The translations under genes and the position numbers were made by a program. This document shows positions 326 through 18,463 of a DNA stretch of 48,762 nucleotides, piece after piece. Each line of letters begins with the position of its first letter. Positions within the stretch are counted from its first letter, which is position 1. Under the pieces are notes generated by a model. It was not told where the DNA came from. It saw only the letters and a list, made by a program, of their open reading frames with translations, and searched no databases. Origin of the DNA: Bacteroidota bacterium (GTDB lineage Bacteria > Bacteroidota > Rhodothermia > Rhodothermales > Rubricoccaceae); assembly GCA_039027055.1 (NCBI GenBank), contig JBCCLD010000002.1, positions 1 through 48,762 of the forward strand, written 5' to 3'.

Positions 326-401
326 GCCATCCTGACAGGCCTCACATGCTTGGCACGCCGTTCGTTCTATGTCGGGCAGCAAACTCAACCACACTCGACC
401 T

Positions 402-3122
<2,721 letters not shown>

Positions 3123-3189
3123 CAGCGGACAGCCCGATCAGCGAGCATGCGGGGCGGCTTCACGCGAGGCCGTCCCGCTTCGCGTTGGG

Positions 3190-3666
3190 TCACGACTGCA
3201 AACGCTCCACCACCTGGTCAAGTAGTGAGGGCGCGAGCCGCGCATTGGTCGCCCGCAGCCGTTCGATGGCAGCGACTCCATCGAGGAGATCCTGCGAGGC
3301 GGCGCGCTCGATCACGCCGAGCGTTCCCGCGATGCGCAGGCCTCGCGCTCGCGCCGTCACCCTGCCAATACGCTCGTCAATCAGTAATAGGCTGGCTTTC
3401 TCGGTTTCCGCGAGCAGGATCGCGTTGCGCTCCCCTGGGTCGAGGCGAAGGAGGTCGGCATCCTGCGCAGTGGGCGCAGATGCGACCTGGAGCCAATCGG
3501 GGGAGGCGGCGATCCAACTGCGAACAGCCTCCGGCGCATGGGGATGCGCCAACTCGGCGCGAACAGTCTCCGGGATCGTCACGGTACCGAACAGGGCGGG
3601 AAGCACCACCACCGCGTCAATCAGCACGAGGTAGTGCAGCGGCGTCGTGTTCGAGACGACGGTCAT
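3190..3666 (-). CDS. PIN-like toxin, DUF3368 family (predicted nucleic-acid-binding/RNase)
   Basis: VVSNTTPLHYLVLI...TIPETVRAEL...LDPGERNAILLAETEKASLLLIDERIGRVTARARGLRIAGTLGVI matches the DUF3368/COG2405 pattern (SPL, iP.aV..El, LD.GE..aI.LA, lllIDe..gR, GtlGvl). Its ATG overlaps the upstream antitoxin stop as ATGA. Confidence 0.8.
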   Translation of the reverse strand: MTVVSNTTPLHYLVLIDAVVVLPALFGTVTIPETVRAELAHPHAPEAVRSWIAASPDWLQVASAPTAQDADLLRLDPGERNAILLAETEKASLLLIDERIGRVTARARGLRIAGTLGVIERAASQDLLDGVAAIERLRATNARLAPSLLDQVVERLQS

Positions 3667-3929
3667 TCGCCGAGGACGTCTCGAAGGGTTGCACGGTCAG
3701 CGTCCAGGTCGGCCGCCTCGTACGCCAGCGATGCGCCCCGGCTGACAAGGAACGACTCCGTGTCCCACCGCGACGCGAAGCCAAGCAGCGCCTGCACCTC
3801 TGCGGGCGTGAACGTGCCCGTTCGGTACGCGTCTACGGCGAGCGCTTCAAGGGCACGCCGGGAGAGGTCACCTGACTCGGCGCGGAGCCGTTGGGCGAGG
3901 TCGTCGGGAAGCGCGAGCGTGATTTCCAT
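3663..3929 (-). CDS. UPF0175-family antitoxin (partner of the DUF3368 PIN-like toxin)
   Basis: MEITLALPDDLAQRLRAESGDLSRRALEALAVDAYRTGTFTPAEVQALLGF is the typical UPF0175/COG2886 layout. It overlaps the toxin gene by 4 nt. I prefer the internal ATG (3929) to the ORF-track start at 3971. Confidence 0.7.
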   Translation of the reverse strand: MEITLALPDDLAQRLRAESGDLSRRALEALAVDAYRTGTFTPAEVQALLGFASRWDTESFLVSRGASLAYEAADLDADRATLRDVLGE

Positions 3930-3988
3930 AGGCCGTGCAGGAGGAATGGATTGCGTGTACGGCACACGCAACGCTTCGTTCGGCGTAG

Positions 3989-4184
3989 GCTCGCCGAGCA
4001 GATCCTCGCCGGGTTCGTCCGCGAGGGCGACACCGTGAAGGTCGATGCATACGCCGATTGCTCGGGTGTGACGCTGGAGACGGTGCCCGTCGGGACGGTC
4101 GTCGAAACCACGCCGCTCCCCAACGGCGACGGCGCGACCGGCGAGCCCGAGGTGCGCCCGAACGCGCCGACGGCGCAGGCGTAG
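3989..4184 (+). pseudogene. orphan relic of the clpB 3' end (direct repeat copy 2), followed by the likely ancestral clpB terminator
   Basis: It encodes only the last 64 or so residues of ClpB, and the upstream part of the listed 97-aa ORF is unrelated sequence. The stop and tail are conserved with copy 1, and a strong hairpin follows. Confidence 0.8.
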
Positions 4185-4207
4185 GGAGAACGCTATCGCA
4201 ACCTCGC

Positions 4208-4250
4208 GAAGCGGGTGCTGTACTTTGCAACAGCACCCGCTTCTCGGTTA
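4208..4250 (+). terminator. rho-independent-type hairpin (14-bp perfect stem)
   Basis: gaagcgggtgctgt (4208-4221), loop actttgca, acagcacccgcttc (4230-4243), then tcggtta (a weak U-tract). It lies 24 nt after the relic clpB stop and 6-13 nt before the ATG at 4256. Confidence 0.7.
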
Positions 4251-4255
4251 CGTCT

Positions 4256-5764
4256 ATGATCACCCGGCTCCAAATCGACGGCTTCAAGAACCTGCTGGAC
4301 GTAGACGTCCGGTTCGGTCCCTTCACCTGCATTGCAGGCGCGAACGGCGTTGGCAAATCCAACCTCTTCGACGCTATTAGCTTCCTGAGCCGCCTTGCCG
4401 ACTCGACGCTTAACGAAGCAGCTTCACGCGTGCGTGATCCTGAGGCCCGCTCCGGCGATCTCCGCTCGCTCTTTACGCTGGTGGGCAACGAGCGCAGCGA
4501 GGTCATGAAGTTTGGAGTCGAGATGGTCGTTCCCCGCGAAGCGACGGATGACCTCAACCAGCCTGCCGAGGCAAGCATCACGCTTCTTCGATACGATCTA
4601 CACCTTGGATTCGAAGATGGAGACCAAGTTACGAGACCGGACCGCCTCACCGTTCGCTACGAATCGCTCACGCACCTGAATCGCGGAGATACAAGCGCGA
4701 GGCAAGTACTACCCTTCCTGAGAACGTCATGGAAGCGAAGCTCTGATTGGCGCAAGGTCGCACTCTGGGGTAGAAGGACAGCTCCCTTCGTCTCGACGGT
4801 CGATGTCAGCGGCGAGAGGCTCGCAGCAAGGGATGCCAGTCATGCCTCTCGGATTCAGCGACACCAGGAAGGCAACCAAGGACGCCCGTATCCCTTCGAC
4901 ATGGCGACACTGCCACGTACGGTGCTTTCGACAGCCAATTCGCTCGAGAGCCCGACCATGCTTGTCGCACGGCGGGAGATGCAGTCTTGGTCATTACTCC
5001 ATTTCGAACCAAGTGCCCTACGAAGCCCCGATGATTTCCGCGCACCGGGACGTATGGCTCCGAACGGAAGGCACTTGCCAAGTACACTCTATCGGCTTGC
5101 TCATCGCGCGGGTCACGAGCCAGAGGACATTTACGCGAGCATTGCCAATCGACTAGCTGAGTTGATCGACGACGCAAAAACTGTTCGGGTAGAACGAGAC
5201 CCTCCACGCCAACTCCTTACGCTGCAAGTTCAAGATCGAGCAGGCACGTTTCATTCGGCTCGCTCGCTCTCTGACGGCACGCTACGCTTTCTAGCACTCG
5301 CCGTACTCCAGGAAGACCCTGACGAGCGCGGCGTGTGGTGCCTTGAGGAGCCTGAGAACGGCCTGCACCCTGCTCGCATTCCAGCAATGATGGCACTGCT
5401 AACTGACATCGCGACGGACACGGGAAGCGCTGTCGGTCAGGACAACCCCTTGCGCCAGGTCATCATCAACACCCACTCGCCGGGCGTTGTCCAGAACGTC
5501 CCCGATGAAAGCCTACTCGCCGCGATGCCTGCTCAGGTGAAACGGGGAGGCACTTGGCAACGAACGATCCGCTTCCAGGCGTTGGACAAGACTTGGCGTA
5601 CAGATCAGGCAGACCCACCTGCGGAATTTGTAGGCAAGGGATGGCTGCTAGACTACCTCAACCGCCCTCCACCGCTCCACGCCGGCGATGGAGAGGCTAA
5701 TGATAGGGTCACGCGGGTCATCGACCGACCTGACGTCCGGCAGTTGGCGTTTCCCTTCGCGTAA
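4256..5764 (+). CDS. SMC/ABC-type ATPase (AAA_15/AAA_21-like), predicted sensor/motor of a two-gene conflict system
   Basis: MITRLQIDGFKNL...FTCIAGANGVGKSNLFDAISFL (Walker A), LSDGTLRFLALAVL (ABC signature), VWCLEEPENGLHP (Walker B/D-loop), IINTHSP (H-loop). I chose ATG 4256 because the upstream part of the ORF-track ORF is the clpB relic read in another frame. GC is clearly lower than in neighbouring genes. Confidence 0.85.
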   Translation: MITRLQIDGFKNLLDVDVRFGPFTCIAGANGVGKSNLFDAISFLSRLADSTLNEAASRVRDPEARSGDLRSLFTLVGNERSEVMKFGVEMVVPREATDDLNQPAEASITLLRYDLHLGFEDGDQVTRPDRLTVRYESLTHLNRGDTSARQVLPFLRTSWKRSSDWRKVALWGRRTAPFVSTVDVSGERLAARDASHASRIQRHQEGNQGRPYPFDMATLPRTVLSTANSLESPTMLVARREMQSWSLLHFEPSALRSPDDFRAPGRMAPNGRHLPSTLYRLAHRAGHEPEDIYASIANRLAELIDDAKTVRVERDPPRQLLTLQVQDRAGTFHSARSLSDGTLRFLALAVLQEDPDERGVWCLEEPENGLHPARIPAMMALLTDIATDTGSAVGQDNPLRQVIINTHSPGVVQNVPDESLLAAMPAQVKRGGTWQRTIRFQALDKTWRTDQADPPAEFVGKGWLLDYLNRPPPLHAGDGEANDRVTRVIDRPDVRQLAFPFA

Positions 5765-6405
5765 TGCTCCTGCTACGGTTTACGCTGCTCAGCGACGGCA
5801 CCTCGGACCGTACGCTTCTCCCTATGCTCACGTGGCTGTTTCGCGAGCACATGCCCGAAGGCGTTGCCCTACAGGAAGCCCATACCGACCTTGGACTGCA
5901 CCGGCAGGCTCCTGGGCGCTCCGACCTCGGGGAACGTATACGCCTTGCCACCGAGCTTTACCCCTGCGACGTGCTTTTCGTGCATCGCGATGCAGAGCGC
6001 GCGGGCGATATCGCCGCCCGATTCGAGGAAATGGATGGCGGGGTCCGCGCAGCAGCGCTTGACCTTCCCTGTATACCCATCGTGCCAGTGCGAATGAGCG
6101 AAGCATGGCTCCTCATCGACGAGACGACCGTCCGCGAGGCTGCCGGTCGCCCCAGAGGCCGCATGAAGCTCACGTTACCGCCTCTTTCAAGAGTCGAGCA
6201 GGTCGATGCTAAGCAGGTCCTTTTCGACTTGCTTCGGACTGCGTCAGGAACGACAGGACGGAGGAGACGCAGCTTCTCAGTAACGCAGGCTAGACAGCGC
6301 GTTGCAGAGTTGATTGAGGACTTCAGCCCACTACGGACGCTCGAAACGTTTGGCATACTAGAGCAGCACGTCGCTGATTTCTGCTCGCAACTCAATGGCG
6401 CCTGA
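5764..6405 (+). CDS. small Toprim-like protein (DUF4276/RloB/DUF4435 class), predicted nuclease effector
   Basis: The start overlaps the ATPase stop by 1 nt (TAATG). The N-terminal strand plus acidic motif is RFTLLSDGTSDRTLLPML (compare lvEGetE). It has VLFVHRDAE (DxD-like) and PVRMSEAWLLIDE, reminiscent of the FELWLL motif of RloB/AbiLii-type proteins. The family assignment is by eye only. Confidence 0.5.
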   Translation: MLLLRFTLLSDGTSDRTLLPMLTWLFREHMPEGVALQEAHTDLGLHRQAPGRSDLGERIRLATELYPCDVLFVHRDAERAGDIAARFEEMDGGVRAAALDLPCIPIVPVRMSEAWLLIDETTVREAAGRPRGRMKLTLPPLSRVEQVDAKQVLFDLLRTASGTTGRRRRSFSVTQARQRVAELIEDFSPLRTLETFGILEQHVADFCSQLNGA

Positions 6406-6566
6406 GGCACGGGAGGGCGCGGGGGCGTCGTGCGGGTCCATGCGCAGCGGGTGAGGTGGCTGCGCGAACATAACGCCGGGCGGGCGTACGTGCCAGCGCG
6501 CCGCGTGCGGCCGTCGGGGAGACGGCAGCGGGGCGGGGCACACCCCCTGATCTCGTTTCACTCGAT

Positions 6567-6600
6567 CTGTCCCCCCTCGAAATCGAGGGGGACAGTTTTT
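6567..6600 (+). terminator. rho-independent terminator
   Basis: ctgtcccccctcga / tcgagggggacag form a stem (one bulged C) with an AAT-type loop, followed by TTTTT (6596-6600). It lies about 160 nt downstream of the Toprim-like gene. Confidence 0.7.
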
Positions 6601-6654
6601 GGTTGCGGGGAGCGCAGCGACCGCGATCAAAAACAGGGGGTGCCTGCCGAGCGC

Positions 6655-7011
6655 TCAGGCCCTGAACACTGCTGCAATCGTATCCAACACCGCATGCGCA
6701 TCCGCGGAGACGGCCTCGTTACGAAAGCGCAGCACGTGGAGGCCCTCCGCTTCGAGGTGGCGCTGGCGCTCAGCGTCGTAGGCGGCGCGCTCGGGCGTGC
6801 CGTGCACGCCGCCATCGAGTTCGATGACGAGGGACTCGGCGCGGCAGTAGAAGTCCACGACGTACGGCCCGATGCCGTGCTGGCAGCGGAACTTGCGACC
6901 GTGAAGCTGGCGGCGTTGGAGGAACACCCACAGCACCGCCTCAGCCGGCGTACCGTGCGAACGGAGGTGCTGCCGGGTCGGCTTCTGGTGCGAGAGGTTG
7001 CGGGTGCGCAT
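6655..7011 (-). CDS. DUF559 endonuclease-domain protein (Vsr/restriction-endonuclease-like fold)
   Basis: MRTRNLSHQKPTRQHLRSHGTPAEAVLWVFLQRRQLHGRKFRCQHGIGPYVVDFYCRAESLVIELDGGVH...ERQRHLEAEGLHVLRFRNEAV is the classic DUF559 pattern (P.E..LW..Lr......kFrRQ..ig.yivDF.c....l.iElDG..H). The start was trimmed to ATG at 7011. Confidence 0.85.
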   Translation of the reverse strand: MRTRNLSHQKPTRQHLRSHGTPAEAVLWVFLQRRQLHGRKFRCQHGIGPYVVDFYCRAESLVIELDGGVHGTPERAAYDAERQRHLEAEGLHVLRFRNEAVSADAHAVLDTIAAVFRA

Positions 7012-7179
7012 GGGCGAAGCGTGCAGAGAACGCCCAGCTAGACAAGCATTGCAGCGACGCCGTAACACGCCCAGACCGCTACCGCTCGCAGACCGCTCAG
7101 CCTTGGCGCGGGTCGCAACGATCCGGAAGTACCTCCGTAGGCCGACGGTCTGCCCGCCCTGCTCTGCACCTCGCTCGCT

Positions 7180-9627
7180 ATGCTCGCCAACTACCTCCGC
7201 GTTGCGCTCCGGGCGCTGCGCAAGCACCGCGGCTACACCGCAATCAACGTCCTTGGCCTCGCGGTCGGCATCGCGGCGAGCGTGCTCATCCTGCAGTACG
7301 TCACCTACGAGCGCAGCTACGACGCCTTCCACACGGACGGCGACCGCATCTACCGCGTCCAGTACGACTTCCTGCGCGACGGCGAGACCGTCTTCCAGTC
7401 GGCGACGGCGTTTCCGAAGGTCGGTCCGGCAATGATCGAGGAGCTTCCCGAGGTGGAGGACGCGGCGCGGCTGTTCCTGCACTACGGCGGCGGCGTAGTG
7501 CGCGTCACCGCGCCCTCAGAAGAGGGCGGCCCGGGCATCGAGCGCTCCTTCGCCGAAGACTTCGTGTTCACCGTCGACCCGTCGTTCCTGGCGATGTTCG
7601 ACTACCCGTGGGTGGCGGGCGACCGCGCGACCGCGCTCGACGGGCCCGGCGAGGCGGTGCTCTCGGTGGAGACGGCGCGGAAGTACTTCGGCGACGCCGA
7701 CCCACTCGGCCAGCGCTTCCGCTTCGGCAACAACCTCGACTACGAAGTCACGGGCGTGATCGAGTCGCCCGAGACCTCGCACCTGAAGTTCAACGTGCTC
7801 CTCTCCTACGAGACGCTCGTGCAGGCGTGGGGCGACGGCTTCGACACGGCGTGGGGCTGGTACGATTTCTACAACTACATCCGGCTCACGCCCGGCACCA
7901 CGCCCGCGTCGGTGGAGGCGAAGTTTCCCGCGTTCATCGAGCGGCACGGCGGAGAGGGGGCGTCGGCGGGCACCGTCTTCGCACTGCAGCCGCTCGGCGA
8001 CATCCACCTCACGTCGGATCTGCTCCAGGAAGCCCGCGTCAATGGCGATGGTACGGCGGTCACGTTTCTCGCCATCATTGCCGGGCTGATCCTGCTCATC
8101 GCGTGGGTCAACTACGTCAACCTTGCCACGGCACGGGCCGTCGAGCGAGCCAAAGAGATCGGCGTGCGCAAGACGCTGGGCGCGAACCGCGGGCAGCTGA
8201 TGCGGCAGTTCCTGTTCGAGTCGCTGCTCGTGAACGTCCTCGCGGCGGTCCTTGCCCTCGGACTGACCTTGGCGGCGTGGCCGCTCTTCGAGGCGCTCGT
8301 CGGCAAGCCCATCCCGCTCGCGCCTGCGACGAATGCCCCGCTGTGGCTCGCGATGCTTGGGGTGCTTGTGGCTGGCGCCATCGTCGCCGGGCTGTATCCG
8401 GCACTCGTGCTCTCGGCCTACCGCCCGGTGACGGTGCTGAAAGGGGCGTTCGCGCGCTCGACGCAGGGGCTGACCTTGCGGCGCGGCCTCGTGGTCGCGC
8501 AGTTCGCCGCGTCGGTCGGCCTCGTGGCCGGGACCGTGCTCGTCGCGCAGCAACTCACCTACATGCGCGGCCAGGACCTCGGCGTCGACATCGACCAGAT
8601 GGTGATCCTGGACGGGCCGGGCGTGCAAGACTCGACCTACAGCGAACGCTACGACGCTTTCAAGCAGGAGGTCGAGCGCATGGCAGGCGTCCGCACCATC
8701 GCGGCCTCGACGGAGATCCCCGGCAACCTGATCTACTGGACCAACGGCGCGCGCCAAGTCGGGCAGCCCAGCGAAGCCACCACAATCATGTACCGGATGG
8801 GCGTCGGCGAGGACTTCCTGGAGAGCTACGACCTTGACCTGCTCGCGGGGCGACGCTTCCGCGGCACCTACGAGGCGGAGCAGCCCAACGTGATCCTCAA
8901 CGAGACGGCGCTGCGCGTGCTGGGCCTCCCGGATGCGAGCCAAGACGACCTGGAAACGGTACTCGGCGAGCAGGTGCAGATCGGCGGCGACACGCTCTCA
9001 GTCGTGGGCGTCGTGGCCGACCACCACCAGCAGGACCTTCAGCAGGACTACTACCAGATCGCCTACGTCCACACGCCCTACGTGAGCAGCTACTTCTCCG
9101 CCAAGCTTACCTCGGCGGCCACCGACGTACCCACCACGCTAGCCAGTCTGGAGTCGGCCTACCGGGAGTTTTTCCCGGGCAACCCGTTCGAGTATGCCTT
9201 CCTCGACCAGCACTTTGACCGGCAGTACCGCACCGACCGGCAGTTCGGCCAGGTGTTCAGCTTCTTCGCGCTGCTCGCGATCGGCGTAGCGTGCCTGGGG
9301 CTACTCGGACTGGCGAGCTTCATCGCCGCTCAGCGAACGAAGGAGATCGGCGTCCGCAAGGTGCTCGGCGCGTCGGTCGGCGGCATCCTGCTGCTCTTGA
9401 CGAAGGACTTCGTGCGCCTCGTGGTGATCGGCGCTGTGGTCGCCACGCCGGTCGTGTGGTGGCTGATGGAGCGTTGGCTCGACGGCTACGCCTTCCGCAT
9501 CGACGTAGGGCCGGGGGCGTTTCTGCTAGCGACGGCGCTGACGCTGGCCGTGGCGCTGGCGACGGTGAGCGTGCAGTCGCTTCGCGCCGCCCAGGCTGAC
9601 CCGGTTCGCTCGCTGCGCTACGATTAG
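7180..9627 (+). CDS. ABC transporter permease, double FtsX / MacB-like with periplasmic core domains
   Basis: MLANYLRVALRALRKHRGYTAINVLGLAVGIA is the typical Bacteroidota-type N-terminus. There are two FtsX modules, each preceded by KEIGVRKTLGA or KEIGVRKVLGA. The protein is 815 aa. Confidence 0.9.
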   Translation: MLANYLRVALRALRKHRGYTAINVLGLAVGIAASVLILQYVTYERSYDAFHTDGDRIYRVQYDFLRDGETVFQSATAFPKVGPAMIEELPEVEDAARLFLHYGGGVVRVTAPSEEGGPGIERSFAEDFVFTVDPSFLAMFDYPWVAGDRATALDGPGEAVLSVETARKYFGDADPLGQRFRFGNNLDYEVTGVIESPETSHLKFNVLLSYETLVQAWGDGFDTAWGWYDFYNYIRLTPGTTPASVEAKFPAFIERHGGEGASAGTVFALQPLGDIHLTSDLLQEARVNGDGTAVTFLAIIAGLILLIAWVNYVNLATARAVERAKEIGVRKTLGANRGQLMRQFLFESLLVNVLAAVLALGLTLAAWPLFEALVGKPIPLAPATNAPLWLAMLGVLVAGAIVAGLYPALVLSAYRPVTVLKGAFARSTQGLTLRRGLVVAQFAASVGLVAGTVLVAQQLTYMRGQDLGVDIDQMVILDGPGVQDSTYSERYDAFKQEVERMAGVRTIAASTEIPGNLIYWTNGARQVGQPSEATTIMYRMGVGEDFLESYDLDLLAGRRFRGTYEAEQPNVILNETALRVLGLPDASQDDLETVLGEQVQIGGDTLSVVGVVADHHQQDLQQDYYQIAYVHTPYVSSYFSAKLTSAATDVPTTLASLESAYREFFPGNPFEYAFLDQHFDRQYRTDRQFGQVFSFFALLAIGVACLGLLGLASFIAAQRTKEIGVRKVLGASVGGILLLLTKDFVRLVVIGAVVATPVVWWLMERWLDGYAFRIDVGPGAFLLATALTLAVALATVSVQSLRAAQADPVRSLRYD

Positions 9628-15600: not shown

Positions 15601-16005
15601 TCAGGAGGAGGGCGTGTCAACGGAACGCTCCCAGGTCACCACGGGCGGGAGGTCCCCCGCGCCGTCGCCCACGTAGCCACCGGTGGCCCCATGGCCGCGC
15701 TCGCCCCCACAGCGATGGGGACCGACATGCCGGTGCGGCGTGCGCGCGAGCAGAACCTGCACCTCGAAGTCGAGCGGGGCGGCGTCGGGGGGGGCTTCGG
15801 AGCGAACGCTCACCACGCGCCACCCTTCACGCAGCGCCGCGTGCAGCTTCTCCACCCCCTCTACCACGTCGCCGTGGCGCACGAGCGTCATGGTCTGCTG
15901 CACCAGGGATGACATGACCCCGGTAGCAGGTCCAGCGTCGGCCTCTGCAAACGCACTGGTGCGCCGGTGCAGAAACGAAGAGGGAAAGAGTCGGTGTTGC
16001 GTCAT
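15601..16005 (-). CDS. small protein with a GWRV module (DUF4177-like) and a His/Cys/Gly-rich tail; paralog of 13932..14384
   Basis: QQTMTLVRHGDVVEGVEKLHAALREGWRVVSVRSEAPPDAAPLDFEVQVLLAR aligns with the C-terminal module of the downstream small protein. GC3 is high in this frame. The start is either ATG 16005 or the internal ATG giving MSSLVQQ. Confidence 0.5.
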   Translation of the reverse strand: MTQHRLFPSSFLHRRTSAFAEADAGPATGVMSSLVQQTMTLVRHGDVVEGVEKLHAALREGWRVVSVRSEAPPDAAPLDFEVQVLLARTPHRHVGPHRCGGERGHGATGGYVGDGAGDLPPVVTWERSVDTPSS

Positions 16006-16468
16006 TGATCCACACGAGCTAGGCTAAGGAGGGGACGCGGCTGTAGGGTGGATCCAGCAGGTCGAGCCCCGTCGGTCAAAGCACAGGCCAACCGCATATG
16101 TGTGGACCAATCCCTACCCGCGAGTTAGGCTTACTCTCACACGCGATGTCCCATCTTGCTACACGCAGACGTACATATAGCAAGTCTAACCATCAATTAT
16201 ATATAATCAAAACAATGTTTTAGATAAGTAAGACAAACACTTACATCGAGACTGGAGAAATACCCTAAGTCTCTTGAAAACTGTTTGCTCGAGCCGACTG
16301 ATAACGAGACAGTCGAGGCGTTACAAAACACCCTCCAGGCGGGAAAAAGCGTAATAGGACCCCACATCAGTCTCCTATGCCGTTCTTTTGTCCAGCCTGA
16401 ACGCTCGGCTCGGCTCTCATATGACGCACTAAGCTTCCTCGTCTAGCCTTTCACCTCCCCCCGCTCTC

Positions 16469-18463
16469 ATGCCGTTGCCTGCCACCCCATGCCCTGCCAC
16501 GCCGACGACGCTCTGGTTCCGTTCTGCTGCGGGCGCCACACACGCCGTGCTGCTCGTCGGTCTACTCATGCTAGGTCGGGGAGCCGCCGCGCAGCCCGAT
16601 CCCACAGCCTCGGTCGCCACGCCGAAGGCCGTGCTCGGTACGGTTGCGCCCGATGGCTTTGGCACCAAAGCCTCGGCGTTGGGTCGCGTGGGAGTGGGCC
16701 GTCTGGAAGGCACCCCCGAGACGGTCACGCTGTCGTTTGAGCATGCCGCCGCGCTCGACTCCACCGCGCTCCGCATCGACGACGGGAGCCTGGCGGACCT
16801 GTTCGTCTTCGATGCGGCCCAGGGCGACACGGTGGTCGTAGCGATGACGTCGGAGGCCTTCACGCCGTACCTCGCGCTCGGCTATGGAGCGAGCACGGTG
16901 GCCCACGGGCGCGTGCAGCGCGTGCGGCCCATCGCGGAAGCCGTGGCCGTGGACGGCACGGCTGCGCTCCGCGTGGCGCTTCCTGCCGACGGCACCTACA
17001 CGCTGCTGGCCAACGCCGCCGCGCCCGGCGAGCAAGGCACTTATCGGTTGGAGGCGCAGTCCGTCACCGCCGCCGAGGCCCCGGCTCCGCGTCCGCTCCG
17101 CCTGAGCGACCTTCCCGGCTCGCCGTTCCGTGACAAGACCCTGGCCCCACGCTTCCTCGAATCTGGAGCGACCGTGACGGGCCGTCTCACGCAGAAAGAC
17201 CCGACGTTCTCGGACCAGACGCCCTTCCACACCTGGCTCTTCGAGGGCAACGCCGGCGACCGCATCCAGGCGACGCTGCGCTCGGACGACTTCGATCCGT
17301 ACCTCATTCTCGCCGAGGGCACGCCCAGCGCCCCAGACAAACTCGTGGAGAACAACGACGCCCCTGGAACGACGGACGGCACCGCCGGGATCACGTTTAC
17401 GCTAACCGAGAGCGGCACGTACACGCTCTACGCGAACACCGCCACGCCTGCCACCGGTGCCTACGCGCTGACCTATGAGGTCGTCGGGCGCGGCGCGGTT
17501 CCGGCGTCCACGCCCACCTCCGACTTCGCCACGCGCTACCCCGGCGGCGGCGACCCTGACGGGCGCTATGCCGTGCTCGTCGGCATCAACGACTACCCGC
17601 CGGGCGTCTCCGACCTCGCCACGCCGGTCTACGATGCCCGCCTGGTGCGCGACCTCCTCGTCGAGCGCATGGGCTACCGCTCCGAGGACGTGGTGCTGCT
17701 CACCGACCGCGAGGCGACGCGCGAGCACGTCCTCCAGGCCCTCGGGCGGCACCTCGGCCAAGCCGGACCCGACGGCTCCGTAGTGTTCTACTACTCCGGC
17801 CACGGCTCGCAGACCTACGACAACGAGGCCACGCAAGACCCCGAAGCCGACGAGCGCGACGAGACGCTGAGCCTCTGGAGCGACAACGGCGGTGTGGTCG
17901 ACCTCCTCGACGACGAGATCCGGGTGCTCCTCGACGCGCTACCGGCCCGCCGCAAGCTGCTCATCTTCGACTCGTGCCACTCGGGCACCGCCGCGCGCGG
18001 ATTCTTTGCCACGAAGCGCCTCGACCGTGACATCGCTGGTGTTGCTGATGCCTACACAGACGTGTCGAGCTACCTGACGCCAGAGACGCTGCCTGCCTAC
18101 GGCCTCACGCCACGCGTTGCCACAGGCGATCGCACCGCATCGGGCGGCGTGCTCGACGCAGACGGGCTGGCGGGGCCGTACGTCCTACTCTCAGGCTCTC
18201 AGGAAGACCAGTCGTCCTACACCTACACCGGCTGGGACCCCGAGGCCGGACGTGGCACGCGCGTGAGCGTGTTCACCTACTACCTGTTGGATGCCCTCGA
18301 AGCCTATGCGGACGCGCCCGACCAGACGCTCACGTTCGAGACGATGATGAATGGCGTGCGGGACACGACGGAATCGTTCATGGCAAAGCATCGCTACGCC
18401 CAGACGCCGCACCTCTCCGGCCCACTCGGCTCACTCCGCCTCGCCGAGTTCTTCGGACGCTAG
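16469..18463 (+). CDS. secreted caspase-family (peptidase C14) protein with two N-terminal PPC-like beta-sandwich domains
   Basis: It has a signal peptide ending LMLGRGAAAQP. Two repeats carry GDTVVVAMTSEAFTPYLALG and GDRIQATLRSDDFDPYLILAEG (pre-peptidase C-terminal-like). The caspase core is RYAVLVGINDY...VVFYYSGHGSQ (His) ...LLIFDSCHSGT (Cys). Confidence 0.85.
   Translation: MPLPATPCPATPTTLWFRSAAGATHAVLLVGLLMLGRGAAAQPDPTASVATPKAVLGTVAPDGFGTKASALGRVGVGRLEGTPETVTLSFEHAAALDSTALRIDDGSLADLFVFDAAQGDTVVVAMTSEAFTPYLALGYGASTVAHGRVQRVRPIAEAVAVDGTAALRVALPADGTYTLLANAAAPGEQGTYRLEAQSVTAAEAPAPRPLRLSDLPGSPFRDKTLAPRFLESGATVTGRLTQKDPTFSDQTPFHTWLFEGNAGDRIQATLRSDDFDPYLILAEGTPSAPDKLVENNDAPGTTDGTAGITFTLTESGTYTLYANTATPATGAYALTYEVVGRGAVPASTPTSDFATRYPGGGDPDGRYAVLVGINDYPPGVSDLATPVYDARLVRDLLVERMGYRSEDVVLLTDREATREHVLQALGRHLGQAGPDGSVVFYYSGHGSQTYDNEATQDPEADERDETLSLWSDNGGVVDLLDDEIRVLLDALPARRKLLIFDSCHSGTAARGFFATKRLDRDIAGVADAYTDVSSYLTPETLPAYGLTPRVATGDRTASGGVLDADGLAGPYVLLSGSQEDQSSYTYTGWDPEAGRGTRVSVFTYYLLDALEAYADAPDQTLTFETMMNGVRDTTESFMAKHRYAQTPHLSGPLGSLRLAEFFGR

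Follow-up and report, generated by a model that had tools for sequence, protein, structure and literature searches.

ABC ATPases paired with Toprim proteins (Old, Gabija, PARIS, AbiL and MADS3-4) are a major theme of bacterial immunity. MADS3-4 and AbiL are classed among the ABC ATPase and TOPRIM systems (PMC11464382), and DUF4276 has been placed in the Toprim superfamily and equated with Mad4 of MADS (PMC12065111). A further member, HEC-01, is the first "Hma-embedded candidate" of a 2024 preprint by Payne et al. (bioRxiv 10.1101/2024.01.29.577857), where it is described as an ABC ATPase with a TOPRIM protein whose metal site is conserved with that of Burkholderia OLD (BpOLD). The shortlist of Payne et al. 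was made up of candidates that also occur outside Hma, in more than 100 genomes. The Toprim assignments of HEC-01B (10.1101/2024.01.29.577857) and DUF4276 (PMC12065111) were both made by structure comparison, and no mechanistic follow-up of HEC-01 was found in the literature. Here we describe a gene pair at positions 4256-6405 of a 48,762-nucleotide stretch of DNA from a Bacteroidota bacterium of the Rubricoccaceae (contig JBCCLD010000002.1, assembly GCA_039027055.1), which we call the window. The pair encodes an ATPase of 502 amino acids (aa) and a partner protein of 213 aa.

We read the locus as a self-contained two-gene operon of the HEC-01 type, within the OLD-like or PARIS-like class of ABC ATPase and Toprim modules, and give this reading a probability of about 0.55. 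The profile matches of both proteins and the strict pairing of their genes are among the evidence for it.

A gene pair matching the HEC-01 models

The ABC/SMC-type ATPase gene spans 4256-5764 on the + strand, from a conserved ATG at 4256 to a TAA at 5762-5764, and the partner gene spans 5764-6405 on the same strand. The ATPase stop and the partner start have one base in common (TAATG at 5762-5766, a 1-nt overlap at 5764). A preliminary description of the locus, read from the sequence by eye, had given the same two genes and overlap, and both were recovered from the list of open reading frames (ORFs) and the sequence. All seven motifs that it quoted lie where it placed them. In the ATPase these are the Walker A motif GANGVGKSN (residues 28-36), the signature LSDGTLRFLAL from residue 338 (338-345), the Walker B/D-loop VWCLEEPENGLHP (360-372) and the H-loop NTHSP (405-409). 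Pfam matches are to AAA_21 (E = 3e-27) and AAA_15 (E = 2e-15), with SMC_N/AAA_23 in the N-terminal region. Across 73 aligned homologues the motif cores GxNGxGKSN, LSDGTxRF, CLEEPENGxHP and NTHSP hardly vary, if at all, so that the family is predicted to be an active ABC-type ATPase. A C-terminal stretch of the ATPase (residues 443-468) is conserved as well.

Both proteins match HEC-01 models in PADLOC-DB v2. The ATPase aligns to HEC-01A PDLC04184 with E = 3.4e-94 and 314.5 bits (residues 1-419 on profile positions 1-398 of 464), and the partner aligns to HEC-01B PDLC04210 with E = 1.2e-17 and 62.4 bits (residues 1-210 on positions 1-212 of 217). Four more HEC-01B models match the partner weakly. 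These profile matches assign the pair to PADLOC HEC-01, a candidate type that is catalogued though poorly understood, and not to a new type. The HEC-01B match is modest (62 bits), which makes the pair, by the same comparison, a diverged sub-branch of the HEC-01 model set. The preliminary description had rightly seen an ABC ATPase with a small partner in an ATPase/Toprim-class candidate defence architecture, as the HEC-01A/B, AAA_21 and AAA_15 matches attest. Its suggestion of an undescribed subtype or uncharacterised system fails because both proteins match catalogued full-length HEC-01 models, of a type already published and later assayed.

The two genes travel together. We collected 81 loci with a partner homologue, 80 of which had enough upstream sequence for synteny to be judged, and in 79 of these 80 the ATPase gene lies directly upstream on the same strand; homologous genes thus co-occur as a pair, as had been anticipated. 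Stop and start codons overlap in 59 of 82 loci, mostly as ATGA, and all gaps are at most 33 nt. The identity matrices of ATPase and partner are correlated (r = 0.75; Mantel 0/999). Against the two closest relatives, the ratio of nonsynonymous to synonymous substitution rates (dN/dS) is 0.07-0.10 for the ATPase and 0.15-0.17 for the partner. Synteny, coupling, co-evolution and purifying selection together establish the pair as a co-inherited, selected two-gene unit. The lone locus out of step is on the chromosome of a gammaproteobacterial metagenome-assembled genome (MAG) (L072, 10001-10606), where the partner is 46% identical and no ATPase is detectable in the 20-kb locus.

The known systems differ in how closely they resemble this pair. 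With HEC-01 it shares the order of ATPase then partner, adjacency on one strand and the combination of an ABC ATPase with a small Toprim-like protein, but it stands alone after clpB, outside any Hma system. PARIS likewise has two genes, an AAA_15/AAA_21-type ATPase (AriA) followed by a Toprim-class effector (AriB, DUF4435), and this shared architecture makes PARIS a likely model for the sensor/effector mechanism. However, the ATPase matches AriA only through a generic AAA_21-like model (1.8e-27, against 3.4e-94 for HEC-01A), the partner has no DUF4435 or AriB match, and PARIS is often carried in viral genomes, whereas the present family was not found in phage or viral collections. OLD, Gabija GajA and AbiL (AbiLi with AbiLii/RloB) share the logic of an ATPase with a Toprim-class protein, and the ATPase N-terminal region resembles GajA (4.5e-11), AbiLi (7e-15) and ATPase-Toprim_I-B (8e-14). 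In OLD and GajA, though, ATPase and Toprim are fused, while here they are two separate ORFs, and the partner lacks the OLD-like_TOPRIM match of OLD and the RloB match of AbiL. Across Pfam and PADLOC, the partner matched none of DUF4435, AriB (these two at E <= 1), RloB and OLD-like_TOPRIM.

The likeness to MADS raises the question of whether the two genes are a sub-module, orphaned or accessory, of some larger Hma, MADS or Menshen-like system, and on their own have no function or a different one. The partner resembles Mad4 in being DUF4276-like, and residues 1-424 of the ATPase give a weak full-length alignment to MAD3. HEC-01 itself was first found embedded in Hma systems (10.1101/2024.01.29.577857); DUF4276/Mad4 and MAD3-like ATPases belong to MADS, and DUF4276 domains occur in Menshen (PMC12065111, PMC11464382). 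Yet the MAD3 equivalog NF047739 scores 128.3 bits against a cutoff of 420, no mad4 model matches the partner, and neither the window nor the related MAG GCA_039178415.1 (locus L001) has other mad genes or a methyltransferase nearby. More broadly, genes of Hma, MADS or Menshen are missing from the flanks in the window, in L001 and in the remaining contexts that were inspected. Purifying selection acts on standalone pairs, and the candidates of Payne et al. were chosen for occurring outside Hma as well. We consider an orphaned sub-module very improbable.

The partner protein family

The partner carries LLSDGTSD at residue 8, HRDAE at 74 and SEAWLL at 112. A DUF4276-like core whose motifs are laid out in Toprim style (residues 1-130) is joined to a helical C-terminal domain (141-212). 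In its AlphaFold2 model (predicted local distance difference test score, pLDDT, 94.8) the core has the order b-a-b-a-b-a-b, with strands at 3-9, 35-40, 70-74 and 103-106 and helices in between, followed by the helical C-terminal domain. D11, D15, H74, R75, D76, E78, E113 and K150 are candidate catalytic residues.

Conservation across 269 sequences is concentrated at these positions. Position 11 is Asp in 231 sequences and Glu in 35. There is almost no variation at G12 and D15 and none at H74, R75, D76 and W115; position 78 is Glu in 236 and Asp in 32, and E113 and K150 are each kept in 268. The patterns [D/E]11-G12-x-x-D15 after strand 1 and D76-x-[E/D]78 after strand 3 are conserved in 266-269 of the 269, and an invariant Glu follows strand 4. 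Canonical Toprim proteins have Glu where the partner has Asp, so the replacement that the preliminary description pointed out is genuine and typical of the family. The classical Toprim layout, reportedly set out by Aravind, Leipe and Koonin in 1998, has an acidic motif ending strand 1 and a DxD-type motif ending strand 3. The acidic residues of the partner match this pattern, with an additional Glu following strand 4. The acidic pair is preceded by an invariant His-Arg, which to our knowledge does not belong to the classical Toprim signature. Judged by motif layout and predicted model, the partner likely belongs to the Toprim superfamily; we put it no higher because the layout fits but the structure and profile comparisons given below found no Toprim.

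The family is large. A word-indexed search returned 1,184 proteins at E <= 1e-3, and a profile search returned 2,394 representatives of 50%-identity clusters, 872 of them at E <= 1e-30. Among the matches listed, nearly all partner relatives are stand-alone proteins of about 205-235 aa. The partner has no NCBIfam match.

The closest public homologues (L001, 1858-2499, and P0003) are annotated as 193-aa proteins starting at an internal Met, which omits strand 1 and the [D/E]GxxD motif. In L001 an ATG overlaps the ATPase stop (TAATG), as in the window, and gives the full 213-aa partner. The deposited 193-aa start is probably wrong, which for P0003 is judged only from its length and 90% query coverage.

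Weighing a defence role

If the locus is an OLD-like or PARIS-like operon of the HEC-01 type, a working scheme can be drawn by analogy with PARIS (PMC11464382), P2 Old (bioRxiv 10.64898/2026.07.10.737580) and Gabija, from which sequestration, trigger and substrate are all borrowed. An ATPase oligomer would hold the partner nuclease inactive and serve as the infection sensor. A phage-derived trigger would alter the ATP-dependent state of the ATPase and so free or activate the partner, which would then cleave nucleic acid in a metal-dependent manner, the substrate being perhaps tRNA (as for AriB and Old) or DNA (as for GajA). Such cleavage would halt phage propagation, probably at the expense of host growth.

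A number of results weigh against this HEC-01 reading, and they concern the fold of the partner, one published phage assay, and the setting and mobility of the pair. The first group begins with DUF4276. The partner scores 12.5 bits (E = 0.18) against Pfam DUF4276 (PF14103), below the gathering threshold of 30.2 bits, and with no listed Pfam match to DUF4435 or RloB either, it resists placement just as it had by eye. Thirty-four of 35 aligned family members match DUF4276 in a consistent register, all of them sub-threshold, and none of the 35 reaches the gathering score, the best having 30.1 bits against 30.2 (E = 7e-7). Because the register is consistent yet no member reaches that score, the family is, on these alignments, a divergent sister of curated DUF4276. 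Foldseek searches with the full AlphaFold2 model against the PDB and BFVD, and with a core-only model (residues 1-132) against the PDB, gave no match at E < 1e-3, and no Toprim was among the top 50 matches. What they returned were generic three-layer alpha/beta proteins (small GTPases, USP, lumazine synthase, TIR) at E >= 0.003 and template-modelling (TM) scores <= 0.46. An hhalign comparison of the family profile with P2 Old gave a probability of 0.06%, a further difference from OLD; P2 Old itself scores 1.2e-17 to the OLD-like_TOPRIM model. A search with the C-terminal half of P2 Old for an OLD-Toprim alignment yielded five fragments only. The family profile found nothing among PDB sequences, and no relative has a solved structure. 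The Toprim fold suggested in the preliminary description has only indirect backing: the motif layout and the order of secondary structure agree with it, but three Foldseek searches and one hhalign comparison found no solved or OLD-type Toprim.

These searches bear directly on whether the partner is a Toprim nuclease at all. Its four-stranded alpha/beta core could instead be that of another flavodoxin-like enzyme, for instance a nuclease like XseA or an enzyme that processes nucleotides, with the invariant His74-Arg75-Asp76 and Lys150 at its centre. The generic sandwiches at the top of the Foldseek results, the missing profile link to the P2 Old Toprim and the His-Arg pair, which as far as we know lies outside the classical signature, would all fit this. 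The catalytic domain of exonuclease VII XseA also recurs among the Foldseek matches, at a probability of 0.92-0.97 over 108 columns, although non-significantly. We set XseA aside as a fold identity: its catalytic domain has a 3-dehydroquinate-dehydratase-like fold (from the literature), so the match says merely "flavodoxin-like sandwich". No Foldseek match of any kind was significant, whereas 34 of 35 family members align to DUF4276 in register and the [D/E]GxxD and Dx[E/D] motifs fall precisely where strands 1 and 3 end, as they do in Toprim. Two papers, moreover, put HEC-01B and DUF4276 in Toprim (10.1101/2024.01.29.577857, PMC12065111). A partner that is not a Toprim nuclease is thus, in our judgement, quite unlikely.

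The published assays of HEC-01 point in opposite directions. In E. coli, HEC-01 gave no protection against a BASEL phage subset and several classic coliphages (10.1101/2024.01.29.577857), which counts against a defence role. In a later metagenomic study, from 2026, one cloned HEC-01 representative protected E. coli B against at least one of T4, T5 and T7 (PMC12881386). The representatives in both assays came from other organisms and not from the present locus.

The neighbourhood and the distribution of the family belong on the same side as the negative assay. No defence-island signal was seen around the pair in the window or the other loci inspected, where neighbours are heterogeneous and mostly housekeeping. 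Among 128 immediate neighbour proteins from 32 other loci we counted 164 Pfam families, none of which occurs in more than three proteins; genes were called crudely as greedy longest ORFs, so that these counts are a rough estimate. PADLOC matches among the 128 were scattered, some of them generic and at least one spurious, and the gene-called contexts of four further contigs are housekeeping. A "mad3" neighbour match in one locus (L010) was discarded as a sign of a Mad system, the neighbour being an ordinary ABC-F protein. The expected enrichment near defence genes was thus not found, and what supports the defence assignment is the homology of the architecture together with a single positive assay, rather than guilt by association. 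Relatives number zero in 50,697 phage records and zero in IMG/VR viral contigs. Plasmids hold two in 72,556, both on large non-mobilizable replicons. One of these, the 591-kb non-mobilizable plasmid p1 of Burkholderia sp. FERM BP-3421, has a more distant pair (L088, 3307-6657; partner 31% identical) with an ATGA-type overlap. This pair directly follows an IS3-family transposase, among the few hints of an association with mobile DNA.

By the organism names in the records, the family nevertheless spans many phyla, among them Bacteroidota/Rhodothermales, Planctomycetota, Chloroflexota, Cyanobacteria, Acidobacteriota, Desulfobacterota, Armatimonadota, Verrucomicrobiota and Proteobacteria. Its distribution is patchy, with at least 528 confirmed matches among 185,579 species genomes. 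The GC content of the pair lies below that of its flanks in 35 of 38 loci, by a mean of 4.9 points. Lower GC than the flanks and patchy occurrence across phyla fit horizontal spread. Low GC is also what a selfish addiction module, akin to a toxin-antitoxin (TA) system, might display. In such a module a toxic partner nuclease would be restrained by the ATPase and kept since its loss is harmful, with no dedicated anti-phage role. The tight coupling and co-evolution of the two genes, their isolation amid housekeeping genes with no conserved third partner, and the assay in which HEC-01 gave no phage protection are all compatible with addiction. Against it, addiction modules are common on plasmids and in phages, yet the family is almost missing from the former and was not found in the latter; the strictly conserved full set of ATP-hydrolysis motifs exceeds what a simple antitoxin needs, and one report does describe phage protection by a HEC-01 representative. 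We hold addiction to be unlikely, though by no means far-fetched.

The last point against the HEC-01 reading is position. In all five Rhodothermales-like relatives (L001-L004, L082), clpB, itself 75-97% identical, lies directly upstream of the pair, and such a fixed place after clpB in Rhodothermales-like genomes is unusual for a mobile defence module. The pair might then be a housekeeping module for nucleic-acid processing or repair, tied to the stress response and inherited vertically next to clpB here, like RecF- or OLD-type chromosomal ATPases. Besides the five loci, the window itself, in 369-6405, had this arrangement before an insertion described below; the divergence of ATPase and partner scales roughly with that of clpB, purifying selection is strong, and defence islands are lacking. 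None of about 75 loci from other lineages, however, has clpB nearby, and the patchy distribution and the best profile matches, which are to defence-candidate models, likewise argue against a housekeeping role. Composition does too: GC at third codon positions (GC3) is 65% in the pair against 91-94% in clpB and the neighbouring MacB-like gene. Synonymous divergence (dS) between the window and L002 is discordant as well, at about 1.0-1.2 for the pair and 0.21 for clpB. We regard a housekeeping module as rather improbable.

The conserved residues and the clpB setting can also be combined in a different way. The partner family would then be a nuclease clade outside Pfam DUF4276, matching no PDB fold and defined by an invariant His-Arg-Asp-x-[Glu/Asp] with Glu113 and Lys150, whose chemistry might be non-Toprim (for example His-assisted RNA cleavage). 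In Rhodothermales it would be a long-term resident of the clpB locus, possibly stress-linked rather than a freely mobile defence gene. This seems to us doubtful.

The locus after clpB

The GC of the pair is 59.7% against 69.3% for the window, the minimum among all 2150-nt windows. The hand counts in the preliminary description (52-53% in two 60-nt lines of the ATPase gene, 75% in one of clpB) were accurate, with 51.7% at 4981-5040, 53.3% at 5161-5220 and 75.0% at 1021-1080. In Rhodothermales-like genomes the GC of the pair is 58-66% against 68-70%, even where clpB is only 75% identical. The pair may have resided at the clpB locus for long with its GC unameliorated, or it may have been replaced repeatedly at a single hotspot. 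Divergence from the two nearest relatives is uneven: the dS of the pair is 0.95-1.22 against L002 (2624-4788), about five times that of the adjacent clpB (0.21), and 0.33-0.42 against L001, near that of the MacB-like gene (0.24). The high value against L002 could come from allele replacement in one lineage or from GC3-constrained synonymous sites in clpB.

In the window a segment of about 1.07 kb has been inserted in the 3' end of clpB, separating it from the pair. The segment contains a duplicate of the final ~200 bp of clpB (2912-3122), a new hairpin (about 3149-3183, dG -39) and a TA pair on the - strand (3190-3971), with a UPF0175 antitoxin-like protein (E = 4e-14) and a weakly matching DUF3368/PIN-like protein; no integrase was found in it. 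The old clpB 3' end persists as a remnant at 3989-4184 that is 89-96% identical to 2912-3122, with one 15-nt indel. L001 and L002 do not have the insertion, and there clpB runs straight to the ATPase. The original 72-nt spacer before the ATPase is unaltered in the window and identical in L001.

Hairpins bracket the pair, as had been described. The upstream one (4205-4246, +; inverted repeat I6) lies between the old clpB 3' end and the ATPase ATG. It has 17-nt arms (4205-4221 and 4230-4246) that are 94% complementary, a folding free energy (dG) of -32.4 kcal/mol, a z-score of -4.5 against shuffles and no U tract. Because the old 3' end remains and the original spacer, identical to that of L001, is preserved, this hairpin is probably an ancestral clpB terminator-like structure. 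The downstream one is a candidate intrinsic terminator of the pair (6567-6600, +), a G+C-rich hairpin at 6567-6595 followed by T5 at 6596-6600; the terminator scan detects a stem at 6572-6591 with the tail ACAGTTTTTG on the + strand.

The loop of the upstream hairpin contains TACTTTG (4221-4227, +), in which the preliminary description saw a weak resemblance to the Bacteroidota -7 promoter box. It occurs once in the 48.7-kb window, and its distance to the ATG is 35-36 nt in the window, L001, L002 and L003, of which L003 has much diverged flanks. This uniqueness and kept spacing lend the promoter suggestion some support, but the seven bases are an imperfect match to the 8-base TAnnTTTG, and a role as promoter element of the pair is speculative. 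The promoter scan found no sigma-70-type promoter.

As the preliminary description had it, the pair sits between the TA genes and a DUF559 gene (6655-7482, -; E = 1e-30). Other neighbours, in the window and in the syntenic L001, are clpB, the MacB-like gene and further housekeeping genes. The DUF559 gene was rejected as a member of the system: it is adjacent only in the closest relatives L001 and L002 and absent from L003, L004, L082 and other phyla. Its DUF559 domain makes up the C-terminal ~130 aa of a mechanically called 275-aa ORF; the gene as called in L001 encodes 118 aa. L002 lacks the MacB-like and YbjQ genes that come after DUF559 in the window and L001. Rfam found no known RNA in 3000-7300, and a tRNA scan of the whole window found none. 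Farther away, 500-nt GC reaches its minimum for the window (51.8%) in an intergenic stretch of about 460 nt (16006-16468), where there is no tRNA. This stretch is likely a divergent promoter region: on one side an ORF on the - strand ends at 16005, and on the other a caspase-like gene on the + strand (Peptidase_C14 in L001) starts at 16469.

HEC-01 is among the least understood branches of the ABC ATPase and Toprim modules, and its two published phenotype assays disagree. The present comparison adds that the sub-branch to which this pair belongs is widespread across phyla, strictly paired, coupled, co-evolving, under purifying selection and essentially absent from phages and plasmids, with sharply defined invariant residues that are targets for mutagenesis. 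Nothing about the locus itself is out of the ordinary, and PADLOC would call it. It is of use as one more well-bounded example, complete with candidates for a native promoter and terminator, of a module that sits stably after clpB in a high-GC Bacteroidota lineage.

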